A model generated the notes under the pieces. The model did not search any database, was not told where the DNA came from, and worked only from the letters and a program-made list of their open reading frames with translations. DNA of 62,151 bases, counting the filler, from Circinaria calcarea (Eukaryota), in the NCBI GenBank assembly GCA_051942165.1. It is 3 parts of 3 records of this genome, joined end to end, with 100 filler letters (N's around TTAATTAATTAA, not from the genome) between each part and the next. Parts side by side here need not be neighbours in the genome. Positions count along the whole stretch, not along the records: positions 1 to 20,701 come from JAVECS010000167.1; 2 more parts are not named here. The stretch is one strand, 5' to 3'. How positions within the stretch are numbered: position 1 is the first letter of the stretch; each line of letters starts with the position of its first letter. Below, in pieces: positions 4,237-46,442 of the stretch. Made by a program: the position numbers and the translations under genes.

Positions 4237-4842
4237 ATGATTAAGCAGACCTTGCGAGATGGAGGCGAATGTGATGCCGCCACTACGCGACAGCTGGCAG
4301 AACGTAATTTGGATATGTTAAAGGCCAAGTTCTCTCAACCATCAGTCATTCAGCAGAAGTTTTCCCTCGCAGCCGAAGCCAAAGCCAACGGTACCTTCAC
4401 CAACCCTCCTCTGCCTTACGCTCCAAGGCATCTTCTATTTTACGGCTCCTTGATGGACCCAGAAATCCTACAGACCGTCCTCAACCTCCCCGAAGCGCCC
4501 TCTCTTCGTGATGGCAGCATTAAGGATTACACGATGAGAATGTGGGGCATTTACCCAGCTCTTGTACCATCCAAGGGGTCAAGGATTGAAGGCAAAGTGT
4601 ACTTGTGTGAAACAGCCCAGCATTTTCTGCACCTAATCGCGTACGAGACAGGCGCATACCAATGGGTACCTTGCCGAATAGAGCTGCAGAACGGAGATAT
4701 CATTGAGCGTGGTCGAGTATTTGTTTGGGCTGGAAAGCCAGATAGCAAGGAGTTAATTGACGGCAGTTTCGACTTCGCCAGATATCAGCAATATTTTAAG
4801 CCATCGGTGCTCAAAAAGCAAGCCCATGGTGGTATTATATAA
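4237..4842 (+). CDS. Gamma-glutamylcyclotransferase / AIG2-like protein
   Basis: Intact 201-aa ORF with LFYGSLMDPEIL, YPALVP, IEGKVY and L..YET..Y motifs. Confidence 0.85.
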   Translation: MIKQTLRDGGECDAATTRQLAERNLDMLKAKFSQPSVIQQKFSLAAEAKANGTFTNPPLPYAPRHLLFYGSLMDPEILQTVLNLPEAPSLRDGSIKDYTMRMWGIYPALVPSKGSRIEGKVYLCETAQHFLHLIAYETGAYQWVPCRIELQNGDIIERGRVFVWAGKPDSKELIDGSFDFARYQQYFKPSVLKKQAHGGII

Positions 4843-5637: not shown

Positions 5638-8600
5638 ATGGCTCAGCCTATCTCGTTTCAACGCGAGACTCATTCGGGGACAAAACATTGTACCGCTCTC
5701 TGGCCTGAGGGGAAGAGCACCGTCTTTGCTAGGCTACCACATTATGATTTACTTACCTTCATGGCTATGGCGCAGAGGCTGCCTACTCTCCATCTCTTCG
5801 ATTTCGTTCCGACCTTTAGGCAAGTTAATTCTAGGAGAGGTCTAAGTGGAGCGGTCCATGCAGCTTCCCTATCATCTGAGCTGGGTATCGTTTTCAAGCG
5901 ATTCCATGTGACGCTTGATTTTACCGAGGAAACGGCGTACAAAGCGCTTATATGCGAACTTATGGTACTGGAACATCCTATTTTGAAGCAACATCGAAAC
6001 ATACAGGAGCTTCTTGGAGTAGCGTGGGATGTTCAAATATTTCAAGGAACATTAGTCCGTGTTATGCCTGTTCTCGTTTTCAAAAGATCCGATCGTGGTA
6101 CGCTGGTAGATTTCATGAACTCCGGGGTGTCCTATATACAGAGAGTACGATTTTGTAGAGATATCGGAAAGGCTATACAAGCAATGCATAAGCTCAGTAA
6201 GTATTACATCCCTGCACAAGAAACTGAATCTGACAGCAATTCGTACAGATATCGTGCATGGTGATATTAAACCTGATAATATCTTGATTTTCAAAGACGA
6301 AACTGGCTTTATGGCTAAAGTTATTGATTTTGGTTGCTCCTGTTTTGGATCGAGAAACGATGATCTGGTGTTGTTAAGCCGTACAGCTCAGTGGGCAGCT
6401 CCTGAAGTCGGTACCTCACATATATCTATTGAAGCAGCTAAGCTAGCTGACATATACTCCTACGGTATGCTGTGCGCTTGGATATTTTTCGGGCAGGGTA
6501 TGCCTGTTACTGACTTTGTTCGCCTGCCTTCTAACTTCGACCAAGCTGCGGAACACCTGATGCAGATAAAGGAGACAGGATTAGAACAATCACAAGATAC
6601 GTCCGTTGCTATAAATAGAAGTGTGCAGGGCATGAGGATTTTTTTCGAGTCCAGCTTCCAAGCAACGCAAGAGAGACGAGCGCGCGATATAGAATATCTT
6701 CTGGACCAACTGCGCTGTTTGTTGATGGAATGGAATATGGGGTGTGTCCAATGCGATTATCCCTCTACAGAATAGCTTTTACTGATAACCAGATAAGACA
6801 GGGAGGTTCAACTAGTAAGCAATATTGTCTTACAGACATGGTCTTGACCGTAAGTTAAAGAGCCTACCTACTCAGAGCGGTATTGACTATGTAGCTCGTC
6901 GGTGCCACGAGACTCTCTTGTGTTAAAAGTCATGTTCAGGCTTTTATTACACAACTGTTGATCCTCCTAATACTCGGGCGGGAAAATAAGACTTTCATTC
7001 CCGGCCAACCTCAATTGGTGTATGATTTATTACATCTCGATGCTCTTCTTTGGTTAGGATCTTTCCTTATAATCTTATTAATCAGTACCGGCGCCATAAC
7101 GTACATTGCGTATCAAACTTCTTCAGGCATTTTCTCAGGTTACGTCAGTTATATCGCTCTGGGGGTCCTTGCAGCCTTACCACTCATACATATTGGAATC
7201 TACCTCTGTTTTTTCGAGGAGTTGAAACATCTTTGGTATAAGCTCCAACATATATGGCGCTCACTCTCCATCTATGGAGAAACACAGCACGCTATACCGC
7301 ACGTAGGTAGCACTGCCAACATTTTCCGCTCGGTATTCGATATGCTAACACATCCCAGTTGCCGGATATATACTCCTTCTTAAACGAGACTCATTATCTT
7401 GTACGGGAGCAGCTTGTTAAAGACCTCGAGAGGAGGATACAGAGGGGCTGTATAAAATGTAAACCAGATGCTGCACTTCAGCTTGCTCTGTGTTATTATA
7501 CCGCTCTCGGAACTCCAAAAAATACAACCGCATCCGAACGTTGGCTTAAGTATGCCCAAAAAACCGAGAGACATTTAGGAAAACTGTGTAAAGATGTTGA
7601 CTACAGTATAAATCTGAATGTTCGTACCAAGCTTGTGATTCTTGAAGGTAAAGAATTTAGATCTTACAGCCATATGTTCACTGTTCGAGATAAGGATAAA
7701 TATTTCGAGAATATACTTCCAACCCTGATAAGAAGGATTTCACAGGAGATTGAGGGGAAGGAAGCGTCCAAGGTGGGCCTACAAACCATCGCATCGTTGC
7801 ACTGGGAACTAGCCACGATATACTGGGTGCATAACGATCTCGAATTAGCAGAATACCATTTCAGGGCCGAAAAACTCATATATTTGGAACGTCCATTTTT
7901 GGGACCTTGTAAATACATTTCTGCAAGGACTTCACATAAAAGAGAGCGTCAGTCTTACGCAACTTCCACCGCTCTTGCGACAGTACTTGACGCCCAAGGG
8001 AGGGAGAGCGAAGCATTAAAAGAACTCCAAGCCGATAGATATTTAATGAAAAATCCGAACGGAAGTCATCCTGACTGGGCAATACTTTCTGTAACACTTG
8101 AGAAACGAGATTTCGTTTCAAGGGCCATGCTAGCAAATCTCCTCATCCGACAGGAGTGCTCAGATATAGCATTAAGATTGGATCTTCTTTCTGACCTTGA
8201 TGATATTCGATTTCATCGAGACAAGGATAGCTATATTATGACGCAGTGTTTAGAGAATATACTAGCACTTGCGCAATTGCTTTTTAAACAAATGCGGAAG
8301 GATACGGCTGCAGATCTTCTCCGAAAAAGATTAAAAGCACATGTCGAAATGTTTGGTACGTTACACCCAAGGACAATGAAAGCCACGAGCGACTTTATCT
8401 TCATACTATCTAATATGGAAGATGAACAACTCGACGAGGCCATATGCCTACAACCCCCGACACTGGACAACTTCTCTGAGGAGGTGAACACAGAGGTCTT
8501 GTTATTTAAAACTGCCTTTGCGCTTGCACTTTCTAAGAAGGGACGCATCGATGATGCCATTGCTGAGATAGATCTAATTCTGCAGTATAAGAAGCGAAAT

Positions 8601-10409
8601 TGGACTCATGGAGAGTACGTGACTCAGGGTTGTATTAGCGACCTCGCTAGCAGCCTTTGTGTACAGGGTGAGGGAGAATATGGAATGCCAGCACTCATGC
8701 AGCATGAAATGTTAGAAATCTCTAAAAAGACGCAGAGTCTAGAAGTCAAGGCGCAAATCATTGCTATTTTATGCACTCTGCCTAGACTAGGCGCACTCGA
8801 TGAGGTTCTGACAGGAATGAGATTGCTGGAGGAAGCTCTAAGAAATTTATGTCAAGATCAGAGGGATCGAATCAAGATGCAAGGATTTATCGTGTTCATT
8901 CTCGCAAACCTTGGCCTTTGCTTCGAGAATCCGCTCCTAGTAGGCGAAGCATTGGATCTTAGCATCGCTCTAAAAGAAGAGGTAGTTGAGAAGCCTGGTT
9001 GGAACGAGATAGACCGCCTGTCTGTTATGCGATCGCTAGCCTCTGTTTATTGGATAAAAAGCTTCATCGCCTGCCAGTGTCATGGGTTTGGGATTCATGA
9101 TCTGAGCTGGATGGATCAAGCGGAGCAGATCCATCGCGAAGCAATATGTATGGCGACCGCAAGCTTTGGTGATGACCATGAAGAAACAGTTCATACGATT
9201 GAAAAGATGGACAGTCTTCTTGCTCGCCATGGGACAGCACAGGCTGATCCTTACCGACTCAACGTACTGCACAGCCTTTTGAGAAAGGAATTCCTAGGAC
9301 CTGGCTGGTATAACGGTTGCTGGGGCTCTAAATTTCTAGATTTCTATGATGCTCTTGACAAGTATAATGCTCAAGACGCATACTTTCATAAGGGGCAGGA
9401 GAGGTATTTAGAGGAAACGCTTGGAGAGGAGCACCCTGGAGTTCTTGCCGAAATTGAGCGGCAAGCTCGAATCAACCCACAGTACGAAATCTTTAAAGAT
9501 ACCCGAAAGCCTTTGATCTATGTCCTGGAGAGTATTCGCAAATACTATAAACATAGCAACATGAAGCCAGATTATCATCCGCAAGTCATCAGGACCCTTG
9601 AGGCCCTTGCTCAGGCATATCGGCGGGAAGGTAAAACATTTCAATCTCTGGCAACCTCGAAGTATGTTTTGCATCTTGCACGCAAGACATTCACAGGAGG
9701 CGACCGCCACCCTAGTTTTATAGCGTATCGCATACGCTTGATGAAAACTCTGTTTCAAGATAACGTGACATTCGCCAAGAAGGTTGAGAATGCTAGAGAG
9801 CTTCTGAAATTGTCTACAGAAACTTTGGGTATACAACACACTCAAACCCTATCGTGTATGAATGCACTTGCCGAAATCCTTTGTGAGCAAGATCAGAATA
9901 GTGAGGCAATGCATCTGATGCAAGATGCTTTGGAGCTCGGCCTGCCATTCTTAGGTGTTAACCACAGTATTGTCTCGCAATCGTGGACTAATTTACTGGC
10001 GGCAATGAATTATGCCACTCGTGACAGCGGAGACTTGTTGGTCAGAGTTGAGGAGATTATACACAGCCTCAGAGTCGCTTCACAACCGTCGGAACCTATA
10101 TTCTTCGATTCAGCGAGTCTCCTACGGGTCTTCGCTGAGGTAAAGCGTATGACTTTAGGGGCGATTGTTCTTGGGGACGAACACAAGTTTACAAGGTCTG
10201 TTAGGGATTCATTCATTCTTCTACTTTGGTATGGCTGCAATTTGAGGTTCGACGTAGCGGTTCAAGCGCTGCAAAGATTAAAGGACATACCGTGGGCAGG
10301 GTTCAGGCCTTCAGTGACATTTGAGGATAATTACGGATCACTTGAGGCGATATTTAATAGACTGAAAGTATACCTGGATATACCCAAGGACCGTTTATCC
10401 CGCTTTTAG
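5638..10409 (+). CDS. Multi-exon protein kinase - hydrophobic/TM segment - Sel1/TPR-repeat protein
   Basis: Kinase motifs VFKR, HGDIKPDN, DFG, APE and DIYSYG, with introns 6197-6248, 6850-6894 and 7303-7358. These are followed by 2-3 hydrophobic segments and about 1000 aa of Sel1/kinesin-light-chain-type TPR motifs (AALQLALCY, FGTLHPRTM, LGEEHP, LGIQHTQTL). The splice donor near 6742-6746 is ambiguous, so kinase and TPR parts could be separate genes. Confidence 0.7.
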
Positions 10410-13400
10410 GCATAACAACGCTCAATCCCGTTCGCAACAAGTATTTCGAACAATTCCATTGGGCGTAATCCTGAATCCAAACTCGCCAGCTCTCCATTCA
10501 GACAAGTTTTCACTGCGTCACGATACACTGCGCCCATAGTACTTCCTAGTTGAGGGACGACGTCCAATAACCAATTTGGATTTGTGTTCTCCGGAAGACG
10601 GTCTGCTCTGTCAGCTTGGACTATAACCTCAACTGGTCTCCACAAGCCAAGTTCGAGCAAGACAACCCCCATACTGTAATAATCGAATTCTGGATGGTAT
10701 CTGCGCATCGAGTGGGAGTCTCGATGCTTAGGATGCTGGTACGGTTTCTGGCTCTGCTCACGAGACGGTCCAGACGTGAATTCAATTTCCTTATCGGGTC
10801 GACTGTGATCAAAGCCAACCAGGAAAGGCTGCTGGAGAGCGCGACTTAAATCGATGTGTTCTACTTCTTTTATTGGCTCTCTCTGGCTATCCCCCTCTGC
10901 TTTTGCACTATGCTGACTCGTTACTAAGGAAGCTGAAGAAGCGGTCTCAGAGGTAGATGCTAGTGGCTGTGAATCTAATCTCCTATCGCGGGCTTTCCTT
11001 GAAAAGGCGTTAAAAATGTTTTTCGAAAGCTTTTTTTTCCCAATCTGACGCGGACTTGGGAGTATATGCTTTTCATCCCTGATTGGAGGCGCAGGCTGTA
11101 ATTTCTTCTCCGATGTATTAGTGACGGCCACATAGGCTTGCGACAACTCATTGTCGAAGAATAGAACGTTAAGAGAGGAGATGTTCTTATGCAGCCATCC
11201 AGTCTTGTGAACAGCCAAAACACAACGTGCAAGACTCTGTGCAAGATTGAATAGAGTTCCGAGATTAGGCCGTTGGCAGCCGAGAATTAAGCTCTTTAGG
11301 CTTACGGGTTTAAGCGATAAAGAAAACAGCGGTGGGAAGCCGTAGACCAGACTAATTGCGTTATGCGAGAGATCTAAAAAGTAACCCGTGCATTGAAGTA
11401 CTCGAAAGTAATCTGGCATTTCTGGATTGTTCAAGAGCTCTGCCAGGGCATCTGCACGATTATACAATTCATCCCCGTGGTGTTGTCCAAGCCAATCGGG
11501 GTCGTATGACATTTGCTCGATTAATACAGTTTTCTCAACGCCTTCCATTTCAGAGATTGTCCCGAAGCAGTGAATACCGAGCTTCGTCGATACTGGAACT
11601 TGATGATCCGTTAAAAGAAGTCTCTTTCTCGCATTGGGTTGAAACTGGTGTACTCGAGCTGTCAAGTATTTGATCGTTGATAACAGGGTAAGATTTCTGC
11701 TCAGACTACCTTCGTCAAGGTCATGCAGTTTTCCAAGGGTATAAACGTTATTGGCGCTTAGTATTTGATTCTCAAGCAAGCCATTCATCATATGTACTAA
11801 GGGTCGAGGAGGAAGAGCCCATAGCCCATCGTTCAGTAGGCTTAGTTGACGTCGGTGAATTTCCGTTGCTGGAAGTACATGCTGCTTGGCGCTGTGAACA
11901 ATATCGCGTTTTTTCCAAAATTTCCGGGTAAGTTCTTTGTTTTCTTTTATAAGATTAACTTCAGAAAGAAAGGCCAGCAAAAGCTTGTGAATCTCGGCGA
12001 AAACCTGTCTGGAGCCCAAAAGCCACTGACGTAGTGAGTCGTTTCTGAGAGAAGCAGGAACTTCGAAGCCAGAATAATCTTCGAGTAGTTTAGCACTCCA
12101 TCCCCATAGAATAAATCTCTTACGCTCAATATCAAGCAAAGTATCATCCAACCAAAATTCGCGGGTCGCTTCGAAAACTCTGCACACGGTCTTGACTATG
12201 GTCTCTTGCGCTCGTAAGAAGATCTGAATAGTCACGCTATCTGCTGTAGGTCGGCTATCTGGGTTAAATGCTAGCATGTCTCTAATAAGTAATAGATGCT
12301 TTTGTTGGATATTCGTAATTTGATTACTCAGAGAGTCTAGCATTCCGGTAACAGCTGGATTGGGTTTGTCGTGGGAATGAAAAAGATAGGCCGTATACTC
12401 GCCGGCCCAAAGCGTCGTCCGTCGCTTTTTCTGGAAGTCCTCAACCGCTTGCGCTTTGTTCTCAGGGTGAAGGTTATGAATGAGAATCTCAAGTAAAATG
12501 CAGCCAAATGACCAGATATCACTAGCGCGACCCACGATTCCCTTCGAGAATGTGTCGTCTTGTAGGGGTTCACATTCGGGAGCCAGATAGTCGCCATTAC
12601 CGGCTGCAAATATTGTTTTCGACGTCTCGGGACGGAGTCTAGAGAGCCCAAAATCGGCGAGGAGGAGCTTCCTTTGCCGAATTAGAATGTTCCTAGGGGC
12701 GAGATCATAATGACATCCGATTAGCTCCAGGTCATACTCTTTAGAACAATACTGATGCAGATTCTCAATTGCGGAAGAAAGACCGTACAGCTGCTGAAGC
12801 AGAGCATGCTCGAAGGGGAAGAACACGCTCAATGCATCTCTTTCTTTATCGCGTAACACTTTGGAGAGAGTCGCATCAGCTCGCGGGAATAGGAAGTTAT
12901 GTTCTGGAGGATCGTTCAACACTGTATAAGAAGCTAGAAGCTCAATGATGTTCTCGTGTCTCAACGACTTGAGTAATGATAGGATCCTTTGTTCGCTCTT
13001 AAATTCGCGGTGTGCTTGTTCCAGAAGTCTGCCACCATGGGCGTCCGTTTCGAACCTGAGTAGCTTCCGGACAATGGTGACCTGCAAGGTGTTAGAAATG
13101 CATATACTATGCCTACTATCTCTTACCTGATCGCCCCCCTGAAACCCAAATCCATGATGAGTACTAGGTAAAGTGACTTCGTACACGTCCCCAAAACCCC
13201 CCCCACCTATCCATTTACTTTTAACAAAAGGTATGACAATGTCGGTTTGATATATACGGTGAGCGCGCCCCTCTTCAAAGTAGGGAGCTATCACTTCCCA
13301 CTGGTGTCTTTGAATATCAAAAATCGCATCGTTATCATTCATAAGAATCCTTGTTAAGGTCTCCTGTTCGAATGGAAGCCTCGAGTCCAAATGCCCTGTT

Positions 13401-13663
13401 TTTGATGATTGATCTGTCTCCACAAACTTCACTATAAGATCAACCCTGTTTCGCATTATCAGCAGCGCTAATACCCTTTTCCCACCATTGAAAACTGCTT
13501 CCATGCAGTTACGTTTCCACAACATATCTATTTCTGTTTTCTCGATGCATTCACGAACAGTATCCCGAGTTAAGATGCTATTCAGTGCACCCTCAGTTAA
13601 GAAATACTTCGACTCTGCACTCTTCACCAAAGCTTCCTTGAGATTCTTACGAATCCGCTCCAT
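10406..13663 (-). CDS. Protein kinase - HeLo-like helical domain - kinase-like domain protein (about 1070 aa)
   Basis: ATG at 13663 and a likely in-frame 45-nt intron 13126-13082 (GTAAGA..CTAAC..TGCAG). Kinase motifs are GGGGFGDVY, VRK, HYDLAPRN, DFG, APE and SDIWSFG. Then comes LDIERKRFILWG (HeLo-like E..R..LWG) and a second atypical kinase-like domain (WLHKNISSLNVLFF, PFLVGFDHSR, YQHP, DYYSMGVVLLELGLW). Confidence 0.85.
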   Translation of the reverse strand: MERIRKNLKEALVKSAESKYFLTEGALNSILTRDTVRECIEKTEIDMLWKRNCMEAVFNGGKRVLALLIMRNRVDLIVKFVETDQSSKTGHLDSRLPFEQETLTRILMNDNDAIFDIQRHQWEVIAPYFEEGRAHRIYQTDIVIPFVKSKWIGGGGFGDVYEVTLPSTHHGFGFQGGDQVRDSRHSICISNTLQVTIVRKLLRFETDAHGGRLLEQAHREFKSEQRILSLLKSLRHENIIELLASYTVLNDPPEHNFLFPRADATLSKVLRDKERDALSVFFPFEHALLQQLYGLSSAIENLHQYCSKEYDLELIGCHYDLAPRNILIRQRKLLLADFGLSRLRPETSKTIFAAGNGDYLAPECEPLQDDTFSKGIVGRASDIWSFGCILLEILIHNLHPENKAQAVEDFQKKRRTTLWAGEYTAYLFHSHDKPNPAVTGMLDSLSNQITNIQQKHLLLIRDMLAFNPDSRPTADSVTIQIFLRAQETIVKTVCRVFEATREFWLDDTLLDIERKRFILWGWSAKLLEDYSGFEVPASLRNDSLRQWLLGSRQVFAEIHKLLLAFLSEVNLIKENKELTRKFWKKRDIVHSAKQHVLPATEIHRRQLSLLNDGLWALPPRPLVHMMNGLLENQILSANNVYTLGKLHDLDEGSLSRNLTLLSTIKYLTARVHQFQPNARKRLLLTDHQVPVSTKLGIHCFGTISEMEGVEKTVLIEQMSYDPDWLGQHHGDELYNRADALAELLNNPEMPDYFRVLQCTGYFLDLSHNAISLVYGFPPLFSLSLKPVSLKSLILGCQRPNLGTLFNLAQSLARCVLAVHKTGWLHKNISSLNVLFFDNELSQAYVAVTNTSEKKLQPAPPIRDEKHILPSPRQIGKKKLSKNIFNAFSRKARDRRLDSQPLASTSETASSASLVTSQHSAKAEGDSQREPIKEVEHIDLSRALQQPFLVGFDHSRPDKEIEFTSGPSREQSQKPYQHPKHRDSHSMRRYHPEFDYYSMGVVLLELGLWRPVEVIVQADRADRLPENTNPNWLLDVVPQLGSTMGAVYRDAVKTCLNGELASLDSGLRPMELFEILVANGIERCYA

Positions 13664-13859: not shown

Positions 13860-14146
13860 ATGCCACAAGTCACCCAGGTTCTTGAGCGGAGATACGTCGA
13901 CAAGGCTAAGCTCCTACAGTTTTGTCGTGAAGAATTCGGATCTGGCAATTTTAGTATCGAGGTAGCCATCCATTGAGTATTTTATAGTATATCAAGTTAA
14001 AAGGCTTATATAGCATGACGATGAACACTACGTCTTGACAGTCCCTCGAAGATTGATAAAGGTATTTACTTTCATCCATTGGAACTATACACTCTGATAA
14101 GCTTATACATTCGGGGTATCAGGCAGAGATTGCGAAGCTCCAATAG
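13860..14146 (+). CDS. 57-aa three-exon microprotein (absent from the ORF track)
   Basis: Exons 13860-13961, 14014-14061 and 14123-14146 with phase-0 GT..AG introns of 52 and 61 nt give MPQVTQVLERRYVDKAKLLQFCREEFGSGNFSIEHDDEHYVLTVPRRLIKAEIAKLQ*. Confidence 0.75.
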
Positions 14147-14623
14147 CACACAGCTGTTTCCACATCTTTTCTAGCAGACCCTTCTTAACCAGCCGAGAAC
14201 CATCATCCGTTGGGCTATCTCACCTGCTTGTGGTAGAATGAAGTGGGTATTCCGCGCTAGTCGACGAACGAACAGGAGGAGTTTGGGGACAATTGTAAGA
14301 TGGCGGAATACTAGACCTAATGTGGGAAGCTTGCGACGTTATCCACCATTCAGTGGAAACGATTAAAACCCAAAGATATCCTATCAAGCCGCTTGCAATG
14401 GTATGCTGCTACTGCAGGGTGATCATATTGGCTTTACCCCACCTGCAAAGGTTTGCCTTATTGCCTAGGCTATGGATGTAGAACAGTCACCGATCGAGAC
14501 AGCGTGAGCGTAAGAGGTGCCAAGATACCATAGCCCCAATTGATGAGATTCTTTCCCCCGGCTATAAAGTTCAACCCTTTCCCGGTACAGAGAAAGCACA
14601 CAGCATTCCTCTGGCTAGTATCC

Positions 14624-16633
14624 ATGGCAAACTCTGAACCAGCAGGCCCCGTTGTTGATGATTTACATATCTTAGATGATCCCAAAGATGCTTATACGCA
14701 ATTAGAGGAGGAGGCAGGCCGGTTGTTCATTGAAGAAGGATTAAAGGTTCTTGTATGGCCGAATGACAGGTGAGCTGCTCATCTCTGATTACACAGTCTA
14801 CCTAGTACTGATTGGCTTAGCGGCAAGCAACTTTCTCTGATCATTGATTCTACGGCTTTGGATGACTACGTTCAAGTAAGATAACTACTTCTATACGTGC
14901 CTATCCTTATCATTCAATTCTAACGAAGCTCTAGCGATGTCTTTCAGAAGGCAGAAGCAGTTTCTTGTGGGTTCACTTGTCTTTGCCCTCCTCATTGATG
15001 ACTGAACTCTCCATTCCGCAGAATTCTCCAGCAGGAACACACATGGAGCCACATTCTCATAAGCCTCGATTGTTTTAGGACTATAATAGCAGCCTTTGGG
15101 GTGTTCACGCCTTTTATTGAATTCATCAAAGCCTTTGGCTTGAAGGTGTCGGAAAGCGATGAGAATTTCATTGCCTATCACCGCAGGAGCTCTTCAATAC
15201 TTTCTGGTGAGTATCGAGCAAGGTTCCCAATATTCTACTTCAACTTACCCATCCTACTTACCCACCCTACTTACCTACTCTACCCGATGGCCAAGTCGGG
15301 GTACTCCACCCCACGCCGAAAGCCTCAGCTTCTACTCCACCCCAGAGGCTTAGGGTATGGTGACCTTGGTATTGAGGCATCCAGAGGCGCATTGCTAATG
15401 ATCTGGTTCGCCTCGACAAGAAATATGCTATAACCTTCGTTATCCAGAGAAGAGCGGCCGGAGTAATCATCCTATATGGTCAATCCGACACGTCGCCGTG
15501 TACCAGCAGTACCATCACAAGACCGGGATATCCAGATGGCTCCTACTACAGCCATCCGAGCGCATGAAACAAAAAATCATAAGCATTATCCAGGCCGATG
15601 GTTGTTTAACTAATAATCCGGTTATCCCACATCTCGCAATTCTGCTATCGTCTGAGAAAGGGTGGAGAGGGTATATAAGCGATTTACAGGAAGAGCTTAA
15701 CGAGCTGGTATAATATATTTCAGTTCAGATATTGTTCTTCATGCTAGAGTCTATAAAACGCTGTAAACCAGATTTCTAACCAGTTATAACATAGGACTAC
15801 AAGGCACAATTCTTCAAACCCGCTATATCTGACAAGGACTCATTCTATGTCCGTTTCGGTGACAGTCAACTTTTGCATCGCCGTCGACAAAAACTCCTAA
15901 AGTCATTTGCCGTTCTAGAAACCTGTATTAGCGTTGCTCAGGGTTATCAGCACTTTTGCAGAGACTTCGATAAGGCGTCTCAGACCCGAATCCCCCAGTC
16001 TTTCTATGTCGAGATAGAATTGTATATTGCCAAAATGCAAGCCCACAAGCGGGCAGTAAATCTACTTCTGAAACAGTCCGCGGGTACCTTGAAGCTGGTC
16101 AGTCATGTCTAATGGACGACCCTCTTACATATGGCTAACCTCTGACAATACGAAAGCTATTCCAAGTTCTCCAATTCCGGAACGATGAGGCATTTGCAAA
16201 AAGCAATAGTATCATGGAACATAATAGCCATGTACTTACAAACCTTGGGACTAGTGCCCGAGAAGAGAACAAGGCTATCATTGTGCTCACAGAGCAAGGG
16301 CGTACCGATTCGAGATTCATGAAGATCCTAACATTCATTGCTGTGTTATTTCTGCCTGCGGGTCTTGTGGCGGTAAGAACCTATCCTTTACAGCTGAACA
16401 TTCCCGTCGATCCCAACGCTGACGAAGAAACCCATCAGAGCATATTTAACTCCGGTCTAATCGTTTCCGTGAACGATGGTGAAGCATCAATGCAGACTCA
16501 CTTTAAGCCTGCGACGCAGTTTTGGATATATCCTGTCTCTACAGTTTTGCTGATGTGCGTCACAACTGTACCTGTGGTATACCTTGGGAGACGTAAGAGC
16601 AAGAAAGATATGGGCATGCACAGTGTTCATTGA
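14624..16633 (+). CDS. CorA-like (2 C-terminal TM helices) membrane protein, about 472 aa, 8 exons
   Basis: Exons 14624-14769, 14821-14875, 14935-14966, 15022-15206, 15421-15707, 15795-16097, 16157-16372 and 16439-16633 splice in frame (1419 nt). Motifs include EICYNLRYPE, WSIRHVAVYQ and WLLLQPS, a coiled-coil stalk, TM1 MKILTFIAVLFLPAGLVASIF and TM2 QFWIYPVSTVLLMCVT. Confidence 0.8.
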
Positions 16634-19625: not shown

Positions 19626-20272
19626 ATGTTTGCTTCCAAGCGCTTAGGCAAGGTATGTTGAGCTGAACCCATTACCCTTTCAGAGACCAATCTATTCTAA
19701 CATGTCTCAACAGGAGCTCACCAAGGTAACCGATACCTAACGAGAAAATCATTTACTCTCAACTAACACAACCACTCCATATAGATCCACGAAACCCTCC
19801 CTCCCGGCATCACCCTCGTCTCCGCCCCGGACTTCAAAGAATGGCTCGTAGACATACGTGTCCTGGATTCCAACCCTCTCTACCTAAACAAGACTTATCG
19901 CCTCCGCTTCCGGTTCTCCAACAAATACCCCATTGGTACCTCCCTCCTCTTCCTTCTCCTCTTTCCCCTCGTCCAGCTCCATTAACAACCATTCCAGAAG
20001 CCCCCGAAGTCACCTTTGTATCCTCCACAACCCCACCCCGCGAAATCCCCATCCACCCACACATCTACTCCAACGGCATCATCTGCCTCGACCTCCTCGG
20101 CACGGCCGGCTGGAGCCCCGTCCAGAACGTGGAGAGCGTGGCCATGAGTCTGCAGAGTATGCTGACGGGAAACACCAAGGATGAGCGCCCGCCCGGGGAT
20201 CAGGAATTTGTAAAGAGGAACACGCAGAGGCCGAGGGATATCAGGTTTAGCTATGAGGATAGTACCGTTTGA
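19626..20272 (+). CDS. Ubiquitin-conjugating enzyme E2, UBE2W-like
   Basis: MFASKRLGK|ELTK|IHETLPPGI...YRLRFRFSNKYPI|EAPEVTF...HPHIYSNGIICLDLL...WSPVQNVESV. Four exons, including a 12-nt microexon at 19714-19725. Confidence 0.9.
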
Positions 20273-21761: not shown

Positions 21762-24011
21762 TTAGAAAACTCCGAATTCCGAACTCCCATTGCGGTCTTG
21801 GAGCATAGGGCTCAGCTCGGAGGGGCTATCAGCGTGTACGGTCCCATCGACTTCCACCGGCCCATCGGTTTCCACCGGTTCATCGACTTTCATATCATCA
21901 TCCACGTTCTCCTCCGATGGTTCTTCAAACTGTCGATTGACCCAATATACCATATCACGATCATAACCGACCACGTTCCAGACTCTATCCCTCAGAACTT
22001 TTGCAAACGTTTTCTCCGGATTGAAACAATCACATAGGGATGAGTCTAGATCTTCGAGGCGTTTTTCGTGTATCGGACGTAGGCGTGTGAGTACAATCTC
22101 TTCAAACTCCTCTCTCAATCGTCCCCACTCCTCAGGCTTACCCTGAAAGTTACCAAAAGATCCAGAACACTCAAAATCCTCTTCTCGATCTCGAGACAGT
22201 AGGAAGGTCGGATATGCCTTAATATGGAGCAATGGCTTAAACATAACACACTCCCAATCTAAAAGAGAGACGAGCTTGTCCTTGTCATCAACAAAAAGGT
22301 TGTGATGAGAGATATCTTCATGAGCAAGTATCGTTGGAACATCAGAGAGTAATCCACCATAGAAGTAGAGTATGACAATTCGTCGAAGAGACTTTAGCGA
22401 CGGTTGCGTACGCTCGCTCCAACGAGCTTGAGGCCCATACTTTGCTCTGTTCAGCTCATCCTCCCTCTTCTGTTCCTCTACGTTCATCTCTTTATAGAGT
22501 TTGCCCAACTCTTTCTCCTTCCAGGCTTGGTTTAGCTCAAGTGCTGTTTGGTAAAAAGGATCGTCCAATTCTTGCTGTTGAACATCCAACAAGGCATCGT
22601 AGTATTCAAATACAGTCTTGAATGGCCCTCGGTTGACGCTATAAGTCAACCGCCGATCCTGGGAGAATCGGTGCTCCACGGAAGGACCAATGAAGAATTC
22701 CATTTCTGAATTCGTCCAGCGTAGATAGATTCCGCCAATTGTGTCACTCTTGACCCTCGATAGCTCATCCGCCCAGTCAGCAACCTGATTCGTGATGCGA
22801 GCATGATCTTCGTTATCCATGTCAGTCCATCTTTCGTTAAGCTCTATGCCTTGAACCTTTTCCATCAGCATCCACTCTAAGCCTAGATGATTGTTGGTCG
22901 ACGAGTCGTATGCATAGATCACTGGGACGGGTATACTTGTAAAATGTCGGATGAACTCTGTGGTAGCTACCTCGCACTCGATCTTGTAATATGGGTCGAT
23001 AGGAAGCGGTATGCGAAAGATAAACTCTCCAGGTTCGCCAGTTACCTTGTTAAAAGTCTTGATGGTGTAGACACTGTTGTATCCTCCTTGATCATAAAAG
23101 TCAATGATAAGACGACTTTGATCCATACCGAGCCGCTCCAGAAGAGGCGTAGCAGTAAGTCGGATACGGTCGATGTTAGGTTCGATCTTGCAAAGTATGA
23201 CATTGCCGTGAAATAAAGTGTGGATACATCGTATTAGGCGTTGCTGCCTTTCAATTGAGAATGGTTGTGGGCCTTCATTAGACACGCGAATCGGATATTG
23301 AGGCTTTGCTAAGCTCTTGTAGGTTTCATATGAGATTTGCGGTGAAGAGGTTGAAGTTGAGCTAGAGCAACTATCATTATTCTCTATATCCTCGTTATCA
23401 TCGAAGGATCCGTTTTCACTCAAGAGAGGGCTTTCGACATCCTCTATCTCCTCATTGGTGTTGGAGGGTTCGCTTTCATTCGGTGGAGGGCTGTCATAGC
23501 CCTCCGCCTTTTCATCTTCATCCGAGGACCCTACATCGCTCAGCGGAGGTTTTACTGTTGGTGCTCGAGCAGAGTCGTCATGACCCATCTGTCTCAAGGT
23601 CTCGCAGGTCGGGCCGAGGTTGGCTCTCGTCAATTCATTGGATGAGGTCTTGGAACTACGTGGTCGTCAGCACATCGCGCTGTAACATTCGACTTGTGCT
23701 TACCATTTCTCGGATAGGTTATCTTTGAGCAGATCTGGTGGAGTTTTATCTGGCGTTATCATGCCCACCGGATGTTGTTGTATCGGTGTTTTTATGGTAC
23801 GAGGAAGCCTCTCTGGCTTAGAAAGCTCTTCTGCAACCATTTTGATGAATACCCGAGTTAGAGGCCCTCCTGGTATAGTGACTTGGCCGTGCAATATATG
23901 CTGGCCGGTTACTGATTGGTTTGCTACTGCTTGATCTGGCACAGCGTGTTCTAGCACCGCCTGGCCCTGTACAGGCTCAAATGTTGCCGCGTCTCTGTCC
24001 GTGTATATCAT
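21762..24011 (-). CDS. Aminoglycoside-phosphotransferase (APH) family kinase-like protein with acidic N-terminal region
   Basis: Motifs QGGYNSVY, FIFRIPLP, CEVATTEF, PVPVIYAYD, WMLMEKVQG, LAHEDISHHNLFV and LLDWE. An upstream exon (ATG 24011) joins in frame through a GTAAGC..GCTGAC..TAG intron near 23702-23655. The start is uncertain. Confidence 0.8.
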
Positions 24012-24966: not shown

Positions 24967-27893
24967 TCACAACGCCCCTTTATCCTCCGCTCCCGCACCT
25001 TTGCCCTCCCCTCCCGCACCCTTCTTCTCGCTTGCCATGCTCAAACCGGCACATAACTTGCCAAAAGCCACATCTTCCGTGGCGGCAAAATAATCTAGCG
25101 AGTCGAGGAACAGCCCCAAATACCGGTTGAAGTGCTCCTCGTAATTTCCCAGCGCATCCTCCATTGTCACCATGTGGCCCGCGTCAAAGGTTTTCAAGCG
25201 CTTTGGAATGGGATGAAGGGGTGAACGAGATTCCCTAGAGAGGTAAGAGAGGGCGGCGGGTGTGCCAGCGAGTGAGGCATCAGCGGAGCACAGAGTACGG
25301 GACGTCGAGGTGATATGCGTAGTAAAGCGAGTGCAGACCTTGATGATTTTTCCCCATAGCTATCAGGGGCAGGAGTTAGTAGAGCTCATGTAGAGGAGTT
25401 GGTAAGGCTGCGGGGAAACATACCCGTAATAGTCGTGGGTTTAGAAGCATTAGTTCTTTCAAGCATGTATCAAGGAAATAGACATGGTCTAACATTAGTT
25501 CGTCAACGGTCCTGTTGACCCGCGGCCGGCCATCTCGAAGCTGTTGCGTCCTTACGTTAGTGGCGGATTCGTTGACCTTTTCCATCAAGATGTTCCAGTT
25601 GGGTTCGATAACTTCAAATGTACAATAGTATATGAGTTGCTGCACAAAGCTAAGCATTCGTGCTCGCAATGTCCATGATCTTCGCTTCCACAGCTCCAGC
25701 TTCCGATTCGAGGATTTGTGCGTCCAGCTCATGATTTTGGTGTGGTCTTCCCAACTATTGACGATAAGGCTCTCCAGATGCCGCATCGAAAGGATGTACC
25801 GAAAGATGATCTGATATCGTAAGACATTCTTGCTATTGATGACAAGAGACACCGGGAATGGTACGGAGTACTTGAATTCGAGCGCTTGGAACCCGCTCAT
25901 CTTGTTATCGTCTTCCACCGCAGCTTGCGTTATCTGTGTTAATGATGTTCGATTTTGTGACATAACCTCGTCCGCTTCGTCTCCTTCATACCCCGTGACA
26001 CTGACGACACTCAGGAGAAATTTGGTCAAGGGCCAATTACTCATGTTGACCTTTACATCTTCTTTGTAAGGGTCTTGAGCCGCGACACTACCAGGCTGCC
26101 GAAGAACTAGGTCAAGAAGAGCCTGTAGCTTGCTTTCGTTGACTGATTTGGCAGGTTTCTTCAGCTCCGTATCACTCAGCAAGAGAAAATAAGAGAAAAA
26201 GTCGGAGTGATCAAGGAAGAAGTAATGTTTCATTGATCGAAGACGAGCTGGTAGAGCGTGAGTTGTGACAAGCAATTTCAAGAGAGCTGAGTTCGCATGA
26301 GCATATGCTCCATTGACATTACCGAGGAATCTTGGATCGTCAAAAGTTTTCGGAACTTCTTTGACCTCATTACCGATATCGACACCTCCACATTCCCTGA
26401 CAACGTTGAGGTACTTTCCAGCCAAGAGCACCTTTTCCTTTATTGCTTCAAGCTGCGGTGGTACATCAGTGTCACGAATAGTATATCTCTTGTCCCAATA
26501 TTGGTCTGTATAGTCTTCTAATAGCTTGTCTTTCCCTATAACCTGCTCTTCTTTAACCAAGAATTCAGCGTGAGGGTCCTTGATGCCTCCATGGTGGAGC
26601 CATTCGTTCAGCATGGTCATATAGGGTCGGCTAGCGTCTTGTAGCAGTCCTTGGAGAACATCTCTTGCGGCCGGATCTCCTGACATGAAGGAAAGCCGTT
26701 CCGTGAGATGGCGCAGTATATTTCCACCTTTGCAGATTTTGGATGACCTGCTTCCTGGAACAGGGTCACCGTCTTCTTTGAGCTGTTTAAGTATTTTATC
26801 ATCGTCAAAATCATCAACAAACTCCTCAGGATCGTCTTCTAATAACGAATTCTTCCGGAGCAGCTCTTGACCCAAGACGTAGAGTTGGAACATCTTATGC
26901 ATTGTTGGTAAAATTTGAATATGAAGAATATGAAGTGTGAATGAGGTGTTCGAAATGAATTGATTTTCAAGTTGTGCTATCAGTATAAGATACTCTTTGA
27001 GTAGCTTGCGCATCGAGGAGCATAGCGCGTGGTTGATCATACCAAATTCCCCCCTACTCTGTACTTCGACAAACGCTTCTACAGCACAGTAATGGGTAGC
27101 CATTTTCAGCATCGTCGTCGTAAGATCTCGCAAACTAGGATCCAACCCAGGTAGAATTGTAAAGCTTGGTCCAACCAGGCGGTCGTTTTCAACCATTGGG
27201 TTATAGGATTTAGCAAAGCGAATGTATTGCCCTTCATGGCCCATGAACGCAAAGAGTAAGTCTTCAACTATTGCTGATTCCTGAAGCTCAGAGGACAATT
27301 GATTTAGAGGTTGCGGCCATAATGCATCGGGGAGTCGCGATGACAGCGGCGGTGCTGATACCCGAATAGCCAAGGGCGCGGATGTGTGAGCCACCAGCGT
27401 AACCTTTGGGTTCCACTGCGCTGAGACATGACTATGTCAGCTATGCAGCCAATGTGTTCTCTCACGAGACAAAGAACTAACGAAGGGCTTCCTTCCTACT
27501 CCTTGGCCGTGTCGCCTCATCATCGACAGTTTTCGCCCTCCACGAGTCCTTCTTTTCTCCCCTAGCCTTGGTAACATCTCTCTCCCGATCCTCTGCTACA
27601 GGTCTCACACTTTTCCTCGTCCGAATTTGAAATGCGTCCTCGGATATTATCTGCGTTCTCTCTGTCCGCCTTCCCTCCAAGTTTCTGTAAGATCCATTTA
27701 TCCCCGACGATGCTAGAGTGGTCTTCCTAGATGGGGCATTGCTGGCAGAGTCCTGCGGCCCCAACTCGCTGCCCAGCTCCGGGGAATCTGCGGCTCCAAT
27801 GCGTGAAGATGGCACGCGTGATCTTGCGCTCGCGGTCGCAACTGATCTTCGCGTAGTCCGGGGGACATTTCGAGCGGTTTCTAAGCTTGACAT
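24967..27893 (-). CDS. SPC97: Gamma-tubulin complex component GCP2 (Spc97/Alp4)
   Basis: QESAIVEDLLFAFMGHEGQYIRF, PYMTMLNEWLHHGGIKDPHAEFLV, KVLLAGKYLNVVRECG, RLRSMKHYFFLD and YSVPFPVSLVI. Three exons spanning ORFs 27477-27893, 25376-27394 and 24967-25197. Confidence 0.9.
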
Positions 27894-29548: not shown

Positions 29549-30620
<1,072 letters not shown>

Positions 30621-39050: not shown

Positions 39051-41427
39051 ATGCCTTCTGCAGATTACAAGCCTCGGACTCTGTACGACAAGGTCTTCCA
39101 AGACCACATTGTTGACGAACGCGCAGATGGAACCATATTGCTTTATATAGGTACCATACATTCATCTACATATTGCCGCCCAGACGAGGCTCTGATATGC
39201 ACGTAGATAGACATCTCGTGCACGAAGTCACCTCCCCAGTCAGTACACTCGAGATCCTCACAGAATTATGGTGCTCACTAGTAGGCAGCAAGCTTTTGAG
39301 GGTCTCAGAAACGCAGGACGAAAGGTCCGGAGGCCAGACTGTACACTTGCTACTACGGATCATGTGTGTGCATCTTCTACCTGGGATATTGAGAAACGCA
39401 TGTTGACATCCCCAGAACGTACCTACGACACCGCGGAAGAATTTCAAGAACGTTGGCCAATTCGTTGAAGAAGCCGACTCTCGGACACAGTGTTTGACGC
39501 TCGAGGACAACGTCAAAAGGTTCGGTCTCACCTACTTTGGATTGGGCGATAAGAGACAGGGTATTGTACACATAATTGGGCCCGAACAAGGCTTCACGCT
39601 GCCTGGAACGACAGTGGTCTGCGGGGACAGCCACACCTCAACGCATGGCGCCTTTGGAGCGCTGGCTTTTGGTATCGGGACGAGTGAGGTGGAGCATGTC
39701 TTGGCCACCCAAACAATCATCACTAAACGCAGCAAGAATATGAGGATACAAGTTGACGGAGCCCTTCCACCGGGCGTTAGCAGCAAGGATATCATATTAC
39801 ATACAATTGGCGTAATAGGAACAGCAGGCGGTACTGGTGCCGTCATCGAATTTTGCGGATCAGCGATCAAGAGCCTCAGTATGGAAGCAAGAATGTCGAT
39901 ATGTAATATGTCAATTGAAGCAGGTGCACGAGCAGGCATGGTTGCGCCCGATCAGAGAACATTCGAATACCTCAAAGGCAGGCCCTTGGCTCCAAAGGTT
40001 GATAGTCCGGAATGGAAGAAAGCAATCAAGTATTGGTCAAGCTTGAAGTCTGATGAGGGTGCGAGCTACGATGAAGAAGTATTTATTGACGCCAAGGACA
40101 TTATTCCAACGGTATCATGGGGTACTTCGCCACAGGATGTTGTGCCTATCACCGGTATTGTCCCTGATCCAGAGGAGTGCAAGACCGAGGAAAAAAGGGA
40201 CAGTGCAAGGCGTGCATTAAAATATATGGGACTTACACCAGGCACACGCATGGAAGATATAGAGCTTGATAAGATATTCATTGGATCATGTACCAATGCT
40301 AGGATCGAAGATCTACGTGCTGCAGCTCACATTCTTGAAGGTCACAAGATTGCACCAAACCTGAAGCGAGCTATGATCGTTCCTGGTTCCGGTCTCGTTA
40401 AAGAGCAGGCAGAAGCAGAGGGTCTGGATAAAATCTTTATAGACGCTGGCTTCGAGTGGAGAGAAGCAGGTTGCTCCATGTGTCTTGGGATGAATCCAGA
40501 TATTCTGTCACCCAAGGAACGATGTGCCAGTACGTCGAATCGAAATTTCGAAGGTCGCCAAGGCGCTGGCGGACGAACACACTTAATGTCACCTGCAATG
40601 GCTGCTGCAGCTGCAATTGTCGGCAAGCTTACAGACGTAAGAAAGCTAGCTAATCGAGACGCCGCCCCTAGAAAGGCGTCTCCAACATTAGAACTAGGTC
40701 CCGAAGTCCCCGATCTTGATACGGAGGATGACTTTGATCGTCTGCTAGATCAACCAGAAGACAAAGAGCCTCATACTAACACCGCCTCACCAAAGCCCTC
40801 AGCCGGGTTACCCAAATTCACAAAGCTCAAAGGGATCGCTGCACCCATGGATCGAGCAAATATTGACACAGATGCCATTATTCCCAAACAATTCCTAAAG
40901 ACGATCAAGCGCACCGGCCTAGGTTCTTCTCTCTTTTATGCTCTACGGTATAATGAAGACGGGTCTGAAAAGCCAGACTTTGTTCTTAACAGAAAACCCT
41001 ATCGCAATGCAAAAATCCTCGTTGTAACCGGTCCGAACTTTGGCTGTGGCAGCTCCAGAGAACACGCACCCTGGGCTCTCCTCGATTTCGGCATTACCTG
41101 TATCATCGCTCCCTCTTACGCCGACATATTCTTCAACAATACCTTTAAGAACGGCATGCTCCCCCTCGTAATCCCCGACCAATCCACCCTCCTCAGAATT
41201 GCCGAAGAAGCCCGGCAGGGCCGTGAGATTGAGGTGGACCTGGTCAATCAGCACGTCAATGACGCTTCTGGGAACAAACTAGCCGACTTCGAGGTGGAGG
41301 AATTTCGGAAACATTGTCTGGTGAACGGCCTGGATGATATCGGCTTGACGATGCAGATGGAGGAAGAGATCAAGAAGTTTGAGGCTAGGAGAACGAGGGA
41401 TACGCCGTGGTTGGATGGCAGTGGATA
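39051..41427 (+). CDS. LEU1: 3-isopropylmalate dehydratase (fused large and small subunits), 3' end lost in gap
   Basis: [83 protein letters not shown] and [13 protein letters not shown]. Confidence 0.97.
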
Positions 41428-41527
41428 NNNNNNNNNNNNNNNNNNNNNNNNNNNNNNNNNNNNNNNNNNNNTTAATTAATTAANNNNNNNNNNNNNNNNN
41501 NNNNNNNNNNNNNNNNNNNNNNNNNNN
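41428..41527. other. Assembly gap with TTAATTAATTAA spacer
   Basis: Same artificial N-linker as at 20.7 kb. Confidence 0.98.
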
Positions 41528-44875: not shown

Positions 44876-46442
44876 TTTTAGTGTTCCCCACAATATTCTC
44901 ACTCACGAGCTCCGAAGAAGGCAAATACTATAGCGCCGCAAGCTGAAAGGCCCCATCTTATTTCCACATCCAACAAAATCAAATCATTCAGTCAGGAATC
45001 CGCGCTCTCGGGCAGACGTACGCAAAACCAAAAACCAACGGTTGCCCCTCCCTTTTCGTTCCGGCACTTGACTTCTCGCACTCCGCTTAGCCCTAAGGGA
45101 AATCAGCTGTGGAAATAAGGCCTTTACGTCCCCTTTGTCGACGATCTGGCCGAGGATCAAAATTCCTGCACCAATCTTGCGTGCACTGGATAGGATACAA
45201 TCTCATCATCCGCCCCGATTCAACTAGCACCGCAAAGTATCTATTGCAGCCAGTACCTGCATTTCAGCTGGCCGTTGGCTTCGAGTCTCTCTGCCATCCT
45301 CTTCTTAACCGCTGTCGCTGTCGTCATTACCGTCGCCGTTTTTTCTTGTTGACTACCTCACAGTCTCCATCCGCCACCTTAGACTCCTCGACGGCACGGC
45401 GTTGCATCGCAGTCGCAACCGGCTTCAGTATCGGCCCTTTAAGAGCCGTGGACGGTGAAGCGTGAAGCGGGGGACATTGGACTCTGGAACAGCTCAACAC
45501 TACCCAACGCCAAGCGACTGACTCCTTTATTTGGTTCACCGTCTCACCAACGGAGGCATCTCCACACTCTGCTCCGCACTAAGGTAGAGCCGCGAAAGTC
45601 CAAGGTAACTGGCTGGATTCCCGCATATTGACCAGCACACTACGCATGTTTCTGCTTTCCGCTATCAAAACCAGCCCAATCTGTCGGCTCTTCCTCTTTC
45701 CCCACATCAAGTCAATCGAGAATTCACACCAGCATCAGCTGCCTGTTCTCCGCTCCACCTTTTCGGAAAACTAGGCCGGTTGCTTGCGCAAGCATCTGTC
45801 CCTGCTTTTACCCAGGGAAGCTCTGCAACGTTCCGACGCTCCGGCAAGACACCTTATCACGCGATCCTCTCCGCTCTCAGCGCCATCTTCATCCTCAAAA
45901 GGTTTCGGATCTCCTGCCACTTGGCAAAGTGGCAGCGTGATTTTCAGCTAACCACGCCGCCTTTGGGGGTCTAAGAAAAGACAACTCTTAGAAGGTAGTG
46001 GGTCCTCGAGAGTTAGATTACCTTATACGCGGCCTGTCAATTAGGCTACCAGCGGGACCTCCACCAAAGACTCCACTCGTGGTCCAATCGCATCGAGCAG
46101 GAAGAAGGGATTCGCCGTCGCTAAAGCACTGCCTTAAAGCTTCCTAAGCCTAAACCGCCCTTCCGGCCGATCCTCGTTTTTCTCTCCGGTCCAAGCCGAT
46201 ATCACCTCTACCAACTATCCCTGTCCATCTCTGCGGTGTGACGCATTTGCAAAGCTGCAAAGCAAAGGACGGCGGTTGGAAGAAAGGATTCCCAGTCGGG
46301 CAATCACCTCGATTTACAGCTCACCTGGTTTGACAACACCAGCTTTGTTGATATCATCGACTACACCACTCTTCCCAGGTTCGTGCGATAGTCTAACGCT
46401 TTTCAAGGGTTGACCCTTTTTGCGCGGAGCGCCCGCTGTCAC
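44876..46442 (+). promoter_or_regulatory. Long AUG-depleted putative 5' leader / regulatory region of creA
   Basis: TATAAATA at about 44788, only one plus-strand ATG (45646) in about 1.57 kb, several SYGGRG sites and a perfect hairpin at 45914-45935. Confidence 0.55.

Follow-up and report, generated by a model that had tools for sequence, protein, structure and literature searches.

We analysed a 62,151-nucleotide stretch of DNA from Circinaria calcarea (GenBank assembly GCA_051942165.1), hereafter the window, which joins parts of three records end to end (positions 1 to 20,701 are from JAVECS010000167.1), and report on one gene on its minus strand, at 10406..13663. The gene is an intron-less open reading frame (ORF) of 1085 amino acids (aa) plus stop, and homologues of its product (P0001) span the full length. 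The frame is uninterrupted from 13780 to 10406 with its first ATG at 13663, and the start methionine coincides with that of P0003, a homologue that is 62% identical. A Pfam Pkinase match at E 4.6e-22 and 3428 homologous clusters at E<=0.001 together exclude a chance ORF. The closest named relatives are ascomycetes, for example Rhypophila, Amniculicola, Podospora, Trichoderma and several lichen fungi. The gene is a four-module gene of filamentous ascomycetes, in which an N-terminal domain is followed by a kinase, then by a trimmed helical bundle of HeLo origin, and last by a DUF7580 pseudokinase. The sequence motifs that a first-pass annotation of this DNA had named were all located in the protein: GGGGFG (153-158), VRK (198-200), HYDLAPRN (318-325), DFG (337-339), APE (361-363), LDIERKRFILWG (aa 510-521), HKN (825-827) and GFD (950-952). 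The N-terminal domain (aa 1-145; 13229..13663, minus strand) is conserved among the longer family members and was detected by phmmer in 36 of 233 collected proteins. It had no Pfam match at E<=10, and its best Atlas score was 0.76, without a named family or cluster.

The protein kinase domain, referred to here as kinase 1, occupies aa 146-480 (12224..13228, minus strand) and was assigned from the Pkinase match, its motifs and its conservation in the family. The match to PF00069 scored 79.1 bits against a gathering cutoff of 31.7 and covered aa 225-478. The catalytic set is complete, with the glycine-rich loop at 153-158, K200, E224, D320, N325 and D337, followed by APE at 361-363. The complete motif set claimed in the first pass therefore holds for every catalytic residue and needs amending at one place, where HYD (318-320) replaces HRD; this substitution makes kinase 1 a non-RD kinase. 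Residues were counted in an alignment of 153 relatives that carry the same kinase fusion (fused relatives), many of which are N-terminally shortened by gene calling. K200 was conserved in 85 of 86 sequences, E224 in 103 of 105, D320 in 144 of 145, N325 in 142 of 145 and D337 in 146 of 148, and the position of the HRD arginine was occupied by His (96), Tyr (31) or Arg (12) among 145. Judged by these residues, kinase 1 is a conserved non-RD kinase that is probably active.

A profile of kinase 1 from the window's clade was compared with the PDB. The nearest solved chains were SOBIR1 (3.4e-11), FLT3 and EphB1; the best 60 of 549 matches also include RSK, TTK and JAK2, and no RIP kinase was found among those 60. 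The RHIM tetrad follows the pattern [IV]Q[IVLC]G, which does not occur in P0001 and occurs in 2 of the 153 relatives. Homology of kinase 1 to RIPK3 was rejected as unsupported on these two grounds. Since kinase 1 shows no special likeness to RIPK3 and lacks the RHIM tetrad, the comparison with RIPK3 made below is one of logic only.

The C-terminal module is a DUF7580 domain (aa 691-1085; 10409..11593, minus strand) with E716 at the β3 lysine position, HKN at 825-827, N832 and GFD at 950-952. When aa 690-1085 were searched alone, Pfam PF24476 (DUF7580) matched with 28.8 bits at a cutoff of 27; the full-length protein scored 26.4 bits, just below that cutoff, and the model matched 52 of 60 fused relatives at E<=0.01. 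An AlphaFold model of aa 480-1085, built on a 96-row alignment, had a predicted local distance difference test (pLDDT) score of 84.7 and a predicted template modelling (pTM) score of 0.84. Model residues 197-606 (aa 676-1085) form a kinase fold, best matched by MerTK (7aaz; Z 22.3, root mean square deviation (rmsd) 3.0, 265 aligned residues), and this part superposes on the kinase domains of MerTK, BRAF, EGFR, HER2 and TYK2 with Z values of 20-22. Foldseek and VIA searches with the 606-aa model likewise returned a generic TK/TKL kinase fold.

Alignment of the two kinase-domain profiles with hhalign paired LLLADFGLSR of kinase 1 with PFLVGFDHSR of the DUF7580 domain (Prob 76), indicating that GFD occupies the DFG position. 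HKNISSLN and HYDLAPRN, matched by eye, have the His and the Asn in common, and GxGxxG is absent from the DUF7580 domain of the window protein. In 147 fused relatives, the β3 lysine position was Glu in 140 (E716 in the window protein) and the DFG aspartate position was Gly (G950) in 142, while the position of the catalytic aspartate was most commonly Asn (68), Ser (36), Gly (19) or Arg (9). With the lysine and both aspartates replaced, the DUF7580 domain cannot work as a conventional enzyme. It retains strict motifs of its own (W-L-H-K-x-I-S-S-x-N, G-F-x-H-S-R-P, T-x-G-P and Y-x-H-P), and its pseudo-activation loop is conserved in the fused relatives at S954 (135/147), R955 (145/147) and position 963, which is Thr or Ser in 142 of 146. 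Collectively, HKN, GFD at the DFG position, the missing glycine-rich loop and the Glu at the β3 lysine position bear out the first-pass proposal that the second domain is a pseudokinase.

A clade-specific disordered insert (~aa 852-945; 10829..11110, minus strand) lies between the catalytic-loop and DFG-equivalent regions of this domain. The K/S-rich insertion noted in the first pass is thus real; it is about 80-100 aa long, and Ser (18) and Lys (12) are the commonest of the 125 residues counted. The insert is limited to the window's clade and is absent from P0007. Its disorder is reflected in pLDDT values below 50 for aa 862-919, the only disordered stretch of the aa 480-1085 model.

Relatives of aa 480-1085 were sought among 1.84 billion representatives, with clusters defined at 50% identity, and 1836 of the clusters counted above matched at E<=1e-10. 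The order kinase, linker of ~200 aa and DUF7580 was observed in most of the best 150 of the 3428 clusters. Other relatives are stand-alone proteins that combine a HeLo domain with DUF7580: Pfam HeLo was detected at E 7e-36 in P0114 and 2e-33 in P0160, and a partial N-terminal HeLo domain in the DUF7580 relatives P0140 and P0162. P0114 has 73 relatives, of which 37 bear a PF14479 (HeLo) annotation and 28 of these PF24476 in addition. The 606-aa C-terminal part of the window protein matched P0114 at E 4.2e-37. By sequence, the bundle and DUF7580 domain of the fused gene are homologous, module for module, to the stand-alone HeLo+DUF7580 proteins. The latter (P0114, P0160 and P0168, which is EPUS_05407 of Endocarpon pusillum) have the same pseudokinase and a collinear, homologous helical region. 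They differ in that HeLo comes first in the chain, opening with a hydrophobic Gly/Ala-rich segment, and in having no active kinase. In the window protein an extra N-terminal domain and a kinase precede the bundle, from which the first ~16 and ~70 central HeLo positions are missing. In a FastTree phylogeny of the DUF7580 domain, 147 rows with the kinase fusion were compared with 26 that start with HeLo; another 38, whose N-termini were absent or of a different type, were set aside. A single branch parted the kinase-fused from the HeLo-first proteins (one change, support 99), pointing to two old subfamilies; as the sampling started from two seed proteins, the tree gives no direction of change.

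The middle region of the window protein, an all-helical HeLo-like domain with linker helices (aa 481-690; 11594..12223, minus strand), contains LDIERKRFILWG (window positions 12101-12136). This stretch is a HeLo signature, corresponding to LDIAKARLSRWG in HET-s, and within it E513, R516 and W520 show conservation of at least 90% across 60 relatives. Pfam HeLo (PF14479, profile positions 37-101) matched aa 507-586 at E 0.0049 with 17.1 bits. An hhalign comparison also set middle regions against the N-terminal stretches of 24 HeLo+DUF7580 proteins. Those of the window's clade (n=16) aligned with Prob 96.3 and E 1.5e-9 over 206 columns, and all 153 middle regions aligned with Prob 98.1 and E 9.8e-14. 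Against the HeLo part alone (P0114, residues 1-230), the values were Prob 91.4 for the clade and 95.7 for all 153. The reversed controls gave Prob 2.0 and 0.1, and four of five column shuffles gave null results (E 0.5-0.99). Modelled alone with AlphaFold, the middle domain had nine helices and a pLDDT of 87.6. In a Foldseek search of this model against 350,542 chains, the first-ranked match was the HeLo domain of HET-s (2wvn), at a weak E of 0.039. In a wide VIA search of 48,161 chains, run independently of Foldseek, HET-S (2wvo_A) ranked second (Z 9.4, rmsd 4.0), and its 158 aligned residues made it the longest alignment of the top ten. Ranks 7, 12, 14 and 15 were the Rx CC domain (Z 8.4), MLA13 (Z 7.9), the MLKL N-terminal domain 6ux8 (Z 7.8) and MLKL 4btf (Z 7.7).

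Several results weigh against this assignment. The window protein does not reach the Pfam HeLo gathering cutoff of 23.2 bits, and of 60 fused relatives a single one is matched by the same model at E<=0.01. The fifth column shuffle produced a spurious 6-column hhalign match at E 3e-19, so that the hhalign E-values are not fully reliable. No Foldseek match of the middle domain reached E<=0.001, and the HET-s alignment had an rmsd of 13.9. The first rank in the VIA search was an unrelated CBL chain (Z 9.5), and Z values of 7.7-9.5 are in the range that the tool deems common for helical bundles. The fold match is also not independent of the sequence evidence, because the alignment used for folding included 31 true HeLo-first proteins. 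Further points concern the shape of the domain. It begins at ~aa 481 of 1085, running on from the last kinase helix, and is therefore internal; the hhalign match sets in at HeLo column 16 and passes over about 70 residues in the centre of HeLo. The hydrophobic N-terminal segment of HET-S is the part that inserts into the membrane, and the equivalent of this first segment in the window protein has a hydropathy of 0.06, compared to a mean of 0.77 for the first 30 residues of 17 HeLo+DUF7580 proteins. PMC9815663 also describes this membrane-inserting role in general terms. Taken together, the profile comparisons and models support the view that the middle region is a real, strongly diverged HeLo derivative. 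The HeLo call, which in the first pass had been a guess from one short motif, has thus gained the hhalign matches at Prob 96-98 and the top Foldseek rank of HET-s. The profile and structure searches themselves were divided, being favourable in the link to HeLo proteins and in this rank, and unfavourable in the score below the Pfam cutoff and in Z values ordinary for bundles.

The window protein resembles the HeLo domains of HET-S and HET-s from Podospora anserina (2wvn, 2wvo) in the motif L-D-I-x-x-x-R-[LF]-x-x-W-G at aa 510-521. It differs from them in that a prion-forming tail and a free hydrophobic N-terminus are both lacking, and in the shortened middle of its bundle. To relate the family to MLKL, a profile of 31 HeLo+DUF7580 proteins was searched against the PDB. 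Three HET-S/HET-s HeLo entries came first (2.5e-21 to 2.9e-20), followed by MLKL 6lk5 (3.3e-10), MLKL 4btf (2.3e-9) and further MLKL chains up to 8.4e-9. The 6lk5 match was one collinear stretch from the bundle through the pseudokinase. MLKL outranked IRAK4 (6.6e-8), LIMK1 and BRAF, with a margin over other kinases of one to two orders of magnitude. At the catalytic loop, LHKgirSeN of the family was paired with LHGKIRSSN or LHRNISSSS of MLKL (LHKNISSLN in the window protein), and at the DFG region GFdYsR was paired with GFELRK or GFELSK (GFDHSR in the window protein). At the level of sequence profiles, the stand-alone HeLo+DUF7580 proteins are a fungal counterpart of the MLKL architecture of helical bundle plus pseudokinase.

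For the window protein itself the link to MLKL is transitive, since its own sequence matches nothing relevant, and is good at the family level. A single-sequence phmmer search with aa 480-1085 against the PDB gave two chance-level matches only, neither of them relevant, and the 50 best structural matches listed for the pseudokinase model did not include MLKL; both results count against a close relationship, although MLKL may still follow below rank 50. In structure, many TK/TKL kinases are at least as close to the window pseudokinase as MLKL is. The systems are alike in having a bundle, linker helices, a pseudokinase with motif substitutions of the same type (4btf, 6lk5) and a kinase, probably active in the window protein. 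The kinase is in the same chain in the window protein, whereas MLKL has a separate activator, RIPK3; the four-helix bundle of MLKL is N-terminal, whereas that of the window protein is at aa 481-690 of 1085.

The genes on either side of the fused gene were also examined. A multi-exon CorA-like gene (13860..16633, plus strand; exon borders approximate) lies head-to-head with it, the two starts being 197 bp apart. Its product has a PF26616-type N-domain and two C-terminal hydrophobic helices. The N-domain is related to P0234 (tblastn E 1.6e-15), which is annotated with PF26616, a family that Atlas names CorA-like. The C-terminus matched Pfam CorA weakly (E 0.08-0.2, with a Pfam copy that holds no PF26616 model), and no GMN motif was seen in the translated exons, the borders of which are approximate.

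Further loci were sought in metagenomes. A scan with P0001 alone gave no relative, and a scan with an 8-sequence alignment gave 12 loci encoding relatives. L001 and L003 are the same sequence, the kinase cores of L004 and L007 are 82% identical, and all other pairs are 36-62% identical. The CorA-like gene adjoins the homologue in all five distinct loci whose flank extends for 2 kb or more (L001/L003, L005, L007, L008 and L009), as it does in the window. In these loci P0234 matched by tblastn at E 8e-31 to 3e-17, at L001 8362-10787, L005 13082-14324, L007 1625-270, L008 3924-2575 and L009 7775-6659. The kinase cores of the five loci are 39-54% identical pairwise. L004, with a flank of 519 bp, shows the first exon of the CorA-like gene. 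The order and orientation of the CorA-like gene vary by locus (head to head, tandem, or beyond another gene), which favours maintained linkage over simple shared synteny. The short first exon (13860-13967 in the window, plus strand; RYV-K-L...FG-GNF-E type) is kept in L001, L004 and L007. A weak copy of this exon (E 0.005) was observed in L008 at 5763-5870 on the plus strand, opposite to the strand of the CorA-like gene body.

On the other side, a gene for a kinase with TPR repeats (5638..10409, plus strand) was read as several ORFs with an intron or frameshift; its kinase has HGD and DFG. Pfam Pkinase matched 6254-6775, and TPR_10/TPR_12 matched 7359-10409. This gene converges on the fused gene, and the two stop codons overlap by 4 nt. 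The convergent pair was also observed in L001/L003 (L001 8056-3580, minus strand), where identity to the window gene is 24.6% for the TPR part (969 aa, E 3e-55) and 44% for the kinase part. In L009 a related kinase lies close by, with no match to the TPR part, and L005 and L008 lack both. A further kinase-like gene, the third in 20 kb by window position, is a 623-aa ORF at 21762-23633 (minus strand) with an APH-type phosphotransferase domain (E 3.1e-13). Elsewhere the window contains ordinary eukaryotic genes or exons, namely GGACT (4237-4842, plus), a ubiquitin-conjugating enzyme fragment (19841-20272, plus), a gamma-tubulin complex protein (25376-27394, minus), KRR1 (29549-30316, minus), aconitase (39494-41479, plus), a C2H2 zinc finger (46410-47909, plus) and MOSC_N (61135-62151, plus). 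The spread of intron-bearing ordinary eukaryotic genes across the window indicates a fungal chromosome context.

With slightly better than even confidence, we favour the reading that the four-module protein is a built-in phospho-switch resembling RIPK3/MLKL, with a membrane or ion-flux output. Kinase 1 would phosphorylate Ser/Thr residues of the pseudo-activation loop (S954, T963), either in cis or between molecules. By analogy with the action of RIPK3 on MLKL, phosphorylation would flip the pseudokinase and alter its hold on the helical bundle. The output, of which we are less sure, would be a membrane or ion-flux event that the bundle itself might make. Because the bundle is internal and its hydrophobic N-terminal segment is lost, an output through the neighbouring CorA-like membrane protein is also conceivable, and the kinase-TPR neighbour may supply the input. 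Of the first-pass reading of this gene as an activating kinase joined to an MLKL-like executor, the architecture stands, with a HeLo relative, a DUF7580 pseudokinase and the retained catalytic residues of kinase 1; that the kinase activates the unit and that the unit acts as an executor would be the functional half, and the term executor is tempered by the internal position of the bundle, by its missing N-terminal segment and central residues, and by the Pfam HeLo score below the cutoff.

The same internal, trimmed bundle without a hydrophobic N-terminal segment, with Pfam HeLo found in one of 60 relatives, would also fit a signalling tandem kinase of the kind represented by plant tandem kinase proteins, a reading that we consider possible, if on the unlikely side. 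Here the pseudokinase and helices would be regulatory, docking or decoy modules, the output would consist in phosphorylating other proteins, of which the CorA-like neighbour might be one, and the HeLo-derived region would be a brace without membrane activity. The strong constraint on kinase 1 and the conserved neighbouring genes for a membrane protein and a second kinase are in keeping with such a role. It accounts less well for the conservation of E513, R516 and W520 of the HeLo signature at 90% or more in the 60 relatives, for the alignment of the bundle with HET-S over 158 residues, and for the conserved hydroxyl residues in the pseudo-activation loop, which are expected of a substrate loop.

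The adjacency of the CorA-like gene in five of five distinct flanked loci and in the window, there head-to-head with starts 197 bp apart, could alternatively mean that the protein is a housekeeping regulator of cation homeostasis outside cell death and immunity, in which the kinase and a C-terminal regulatory domain steer a CorA-like transporter. We regard this as distinctly improbable: the CorA similarity of the neighbour is weak (E 0.08-0.2) with no GMN seen within the approximate exon borders, the module shares ancestry with HeLo proteins, and the family, with 3428 clusters at 50% identity, is both very large and divergent. Families of that kind are more typical of accessory than of housekeeping genes. 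That the protein is a true dual kinase with an atypical yet active second domain is barely credible, since the complete, confidently modelled kinase fold and the conservation of N832 (117/147), H825 (140/147) and K826 (131/147) are set against the missing glycine-rich loop, Glu at the β3 lysine position in 140 of 147, a catalytic aspartate position that is mostly N, S, G or R, and the change of the DFG aspartate to Gly in 142 of 147.

Within the favoured phospho-switch reading, a more specific proposal is that the kinase-bundle-pseudokinase protein and the CorA-like protein, with the kinase-TPR protein in some lineages, form a three-part fungal module in which the phospho-switch gates a CorA-like cation channel rather than making a pore of its own. 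We consider this version rather unlikely.

According to a 2025 review (PMC12881547), certain HELL domains share a protein with a kinase or pseudokinase domain, an arrangement that recalls MLKL. The idea of a fungal bundle plus pseudokinase is therefore already known. Our literature search, which left aside subscription journals and supplements, found no description of an active kinase fused before such a unit, of DUF7580 or of a pairing with a CorA-like protein, nor of the domain order kinase, bundle, pseudokinase. Compared by description only, plant MLKLs and Pm13 have a kinase or pseudokinase joined to a HeLo-type bundle, and the plant tandem kinases WTK1/Yr15 and WTK4 have a kinase and a pseudokinase in one chain.

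It has long been asked whether fungi possess an equivalent of the phosphorylation step of RIPK3 on MLKL, beyond the amyloid templating of HeLo proteins. Because the fused protein unites a kinase, a bundle of HeLo origin and a dead kinase like that of MLKL, this question becomes testable by single-gene constructs and point mutants; the family is large, and its C-terminal domain continues to be classed as a DUF. From the conserved CorA-like neighbour, a membrane partner outside current models of fungal cell death is suggested. If the CorA-like channel proved to be gated by the switch, the pathway would resemble necroptosis but employ another executioner.

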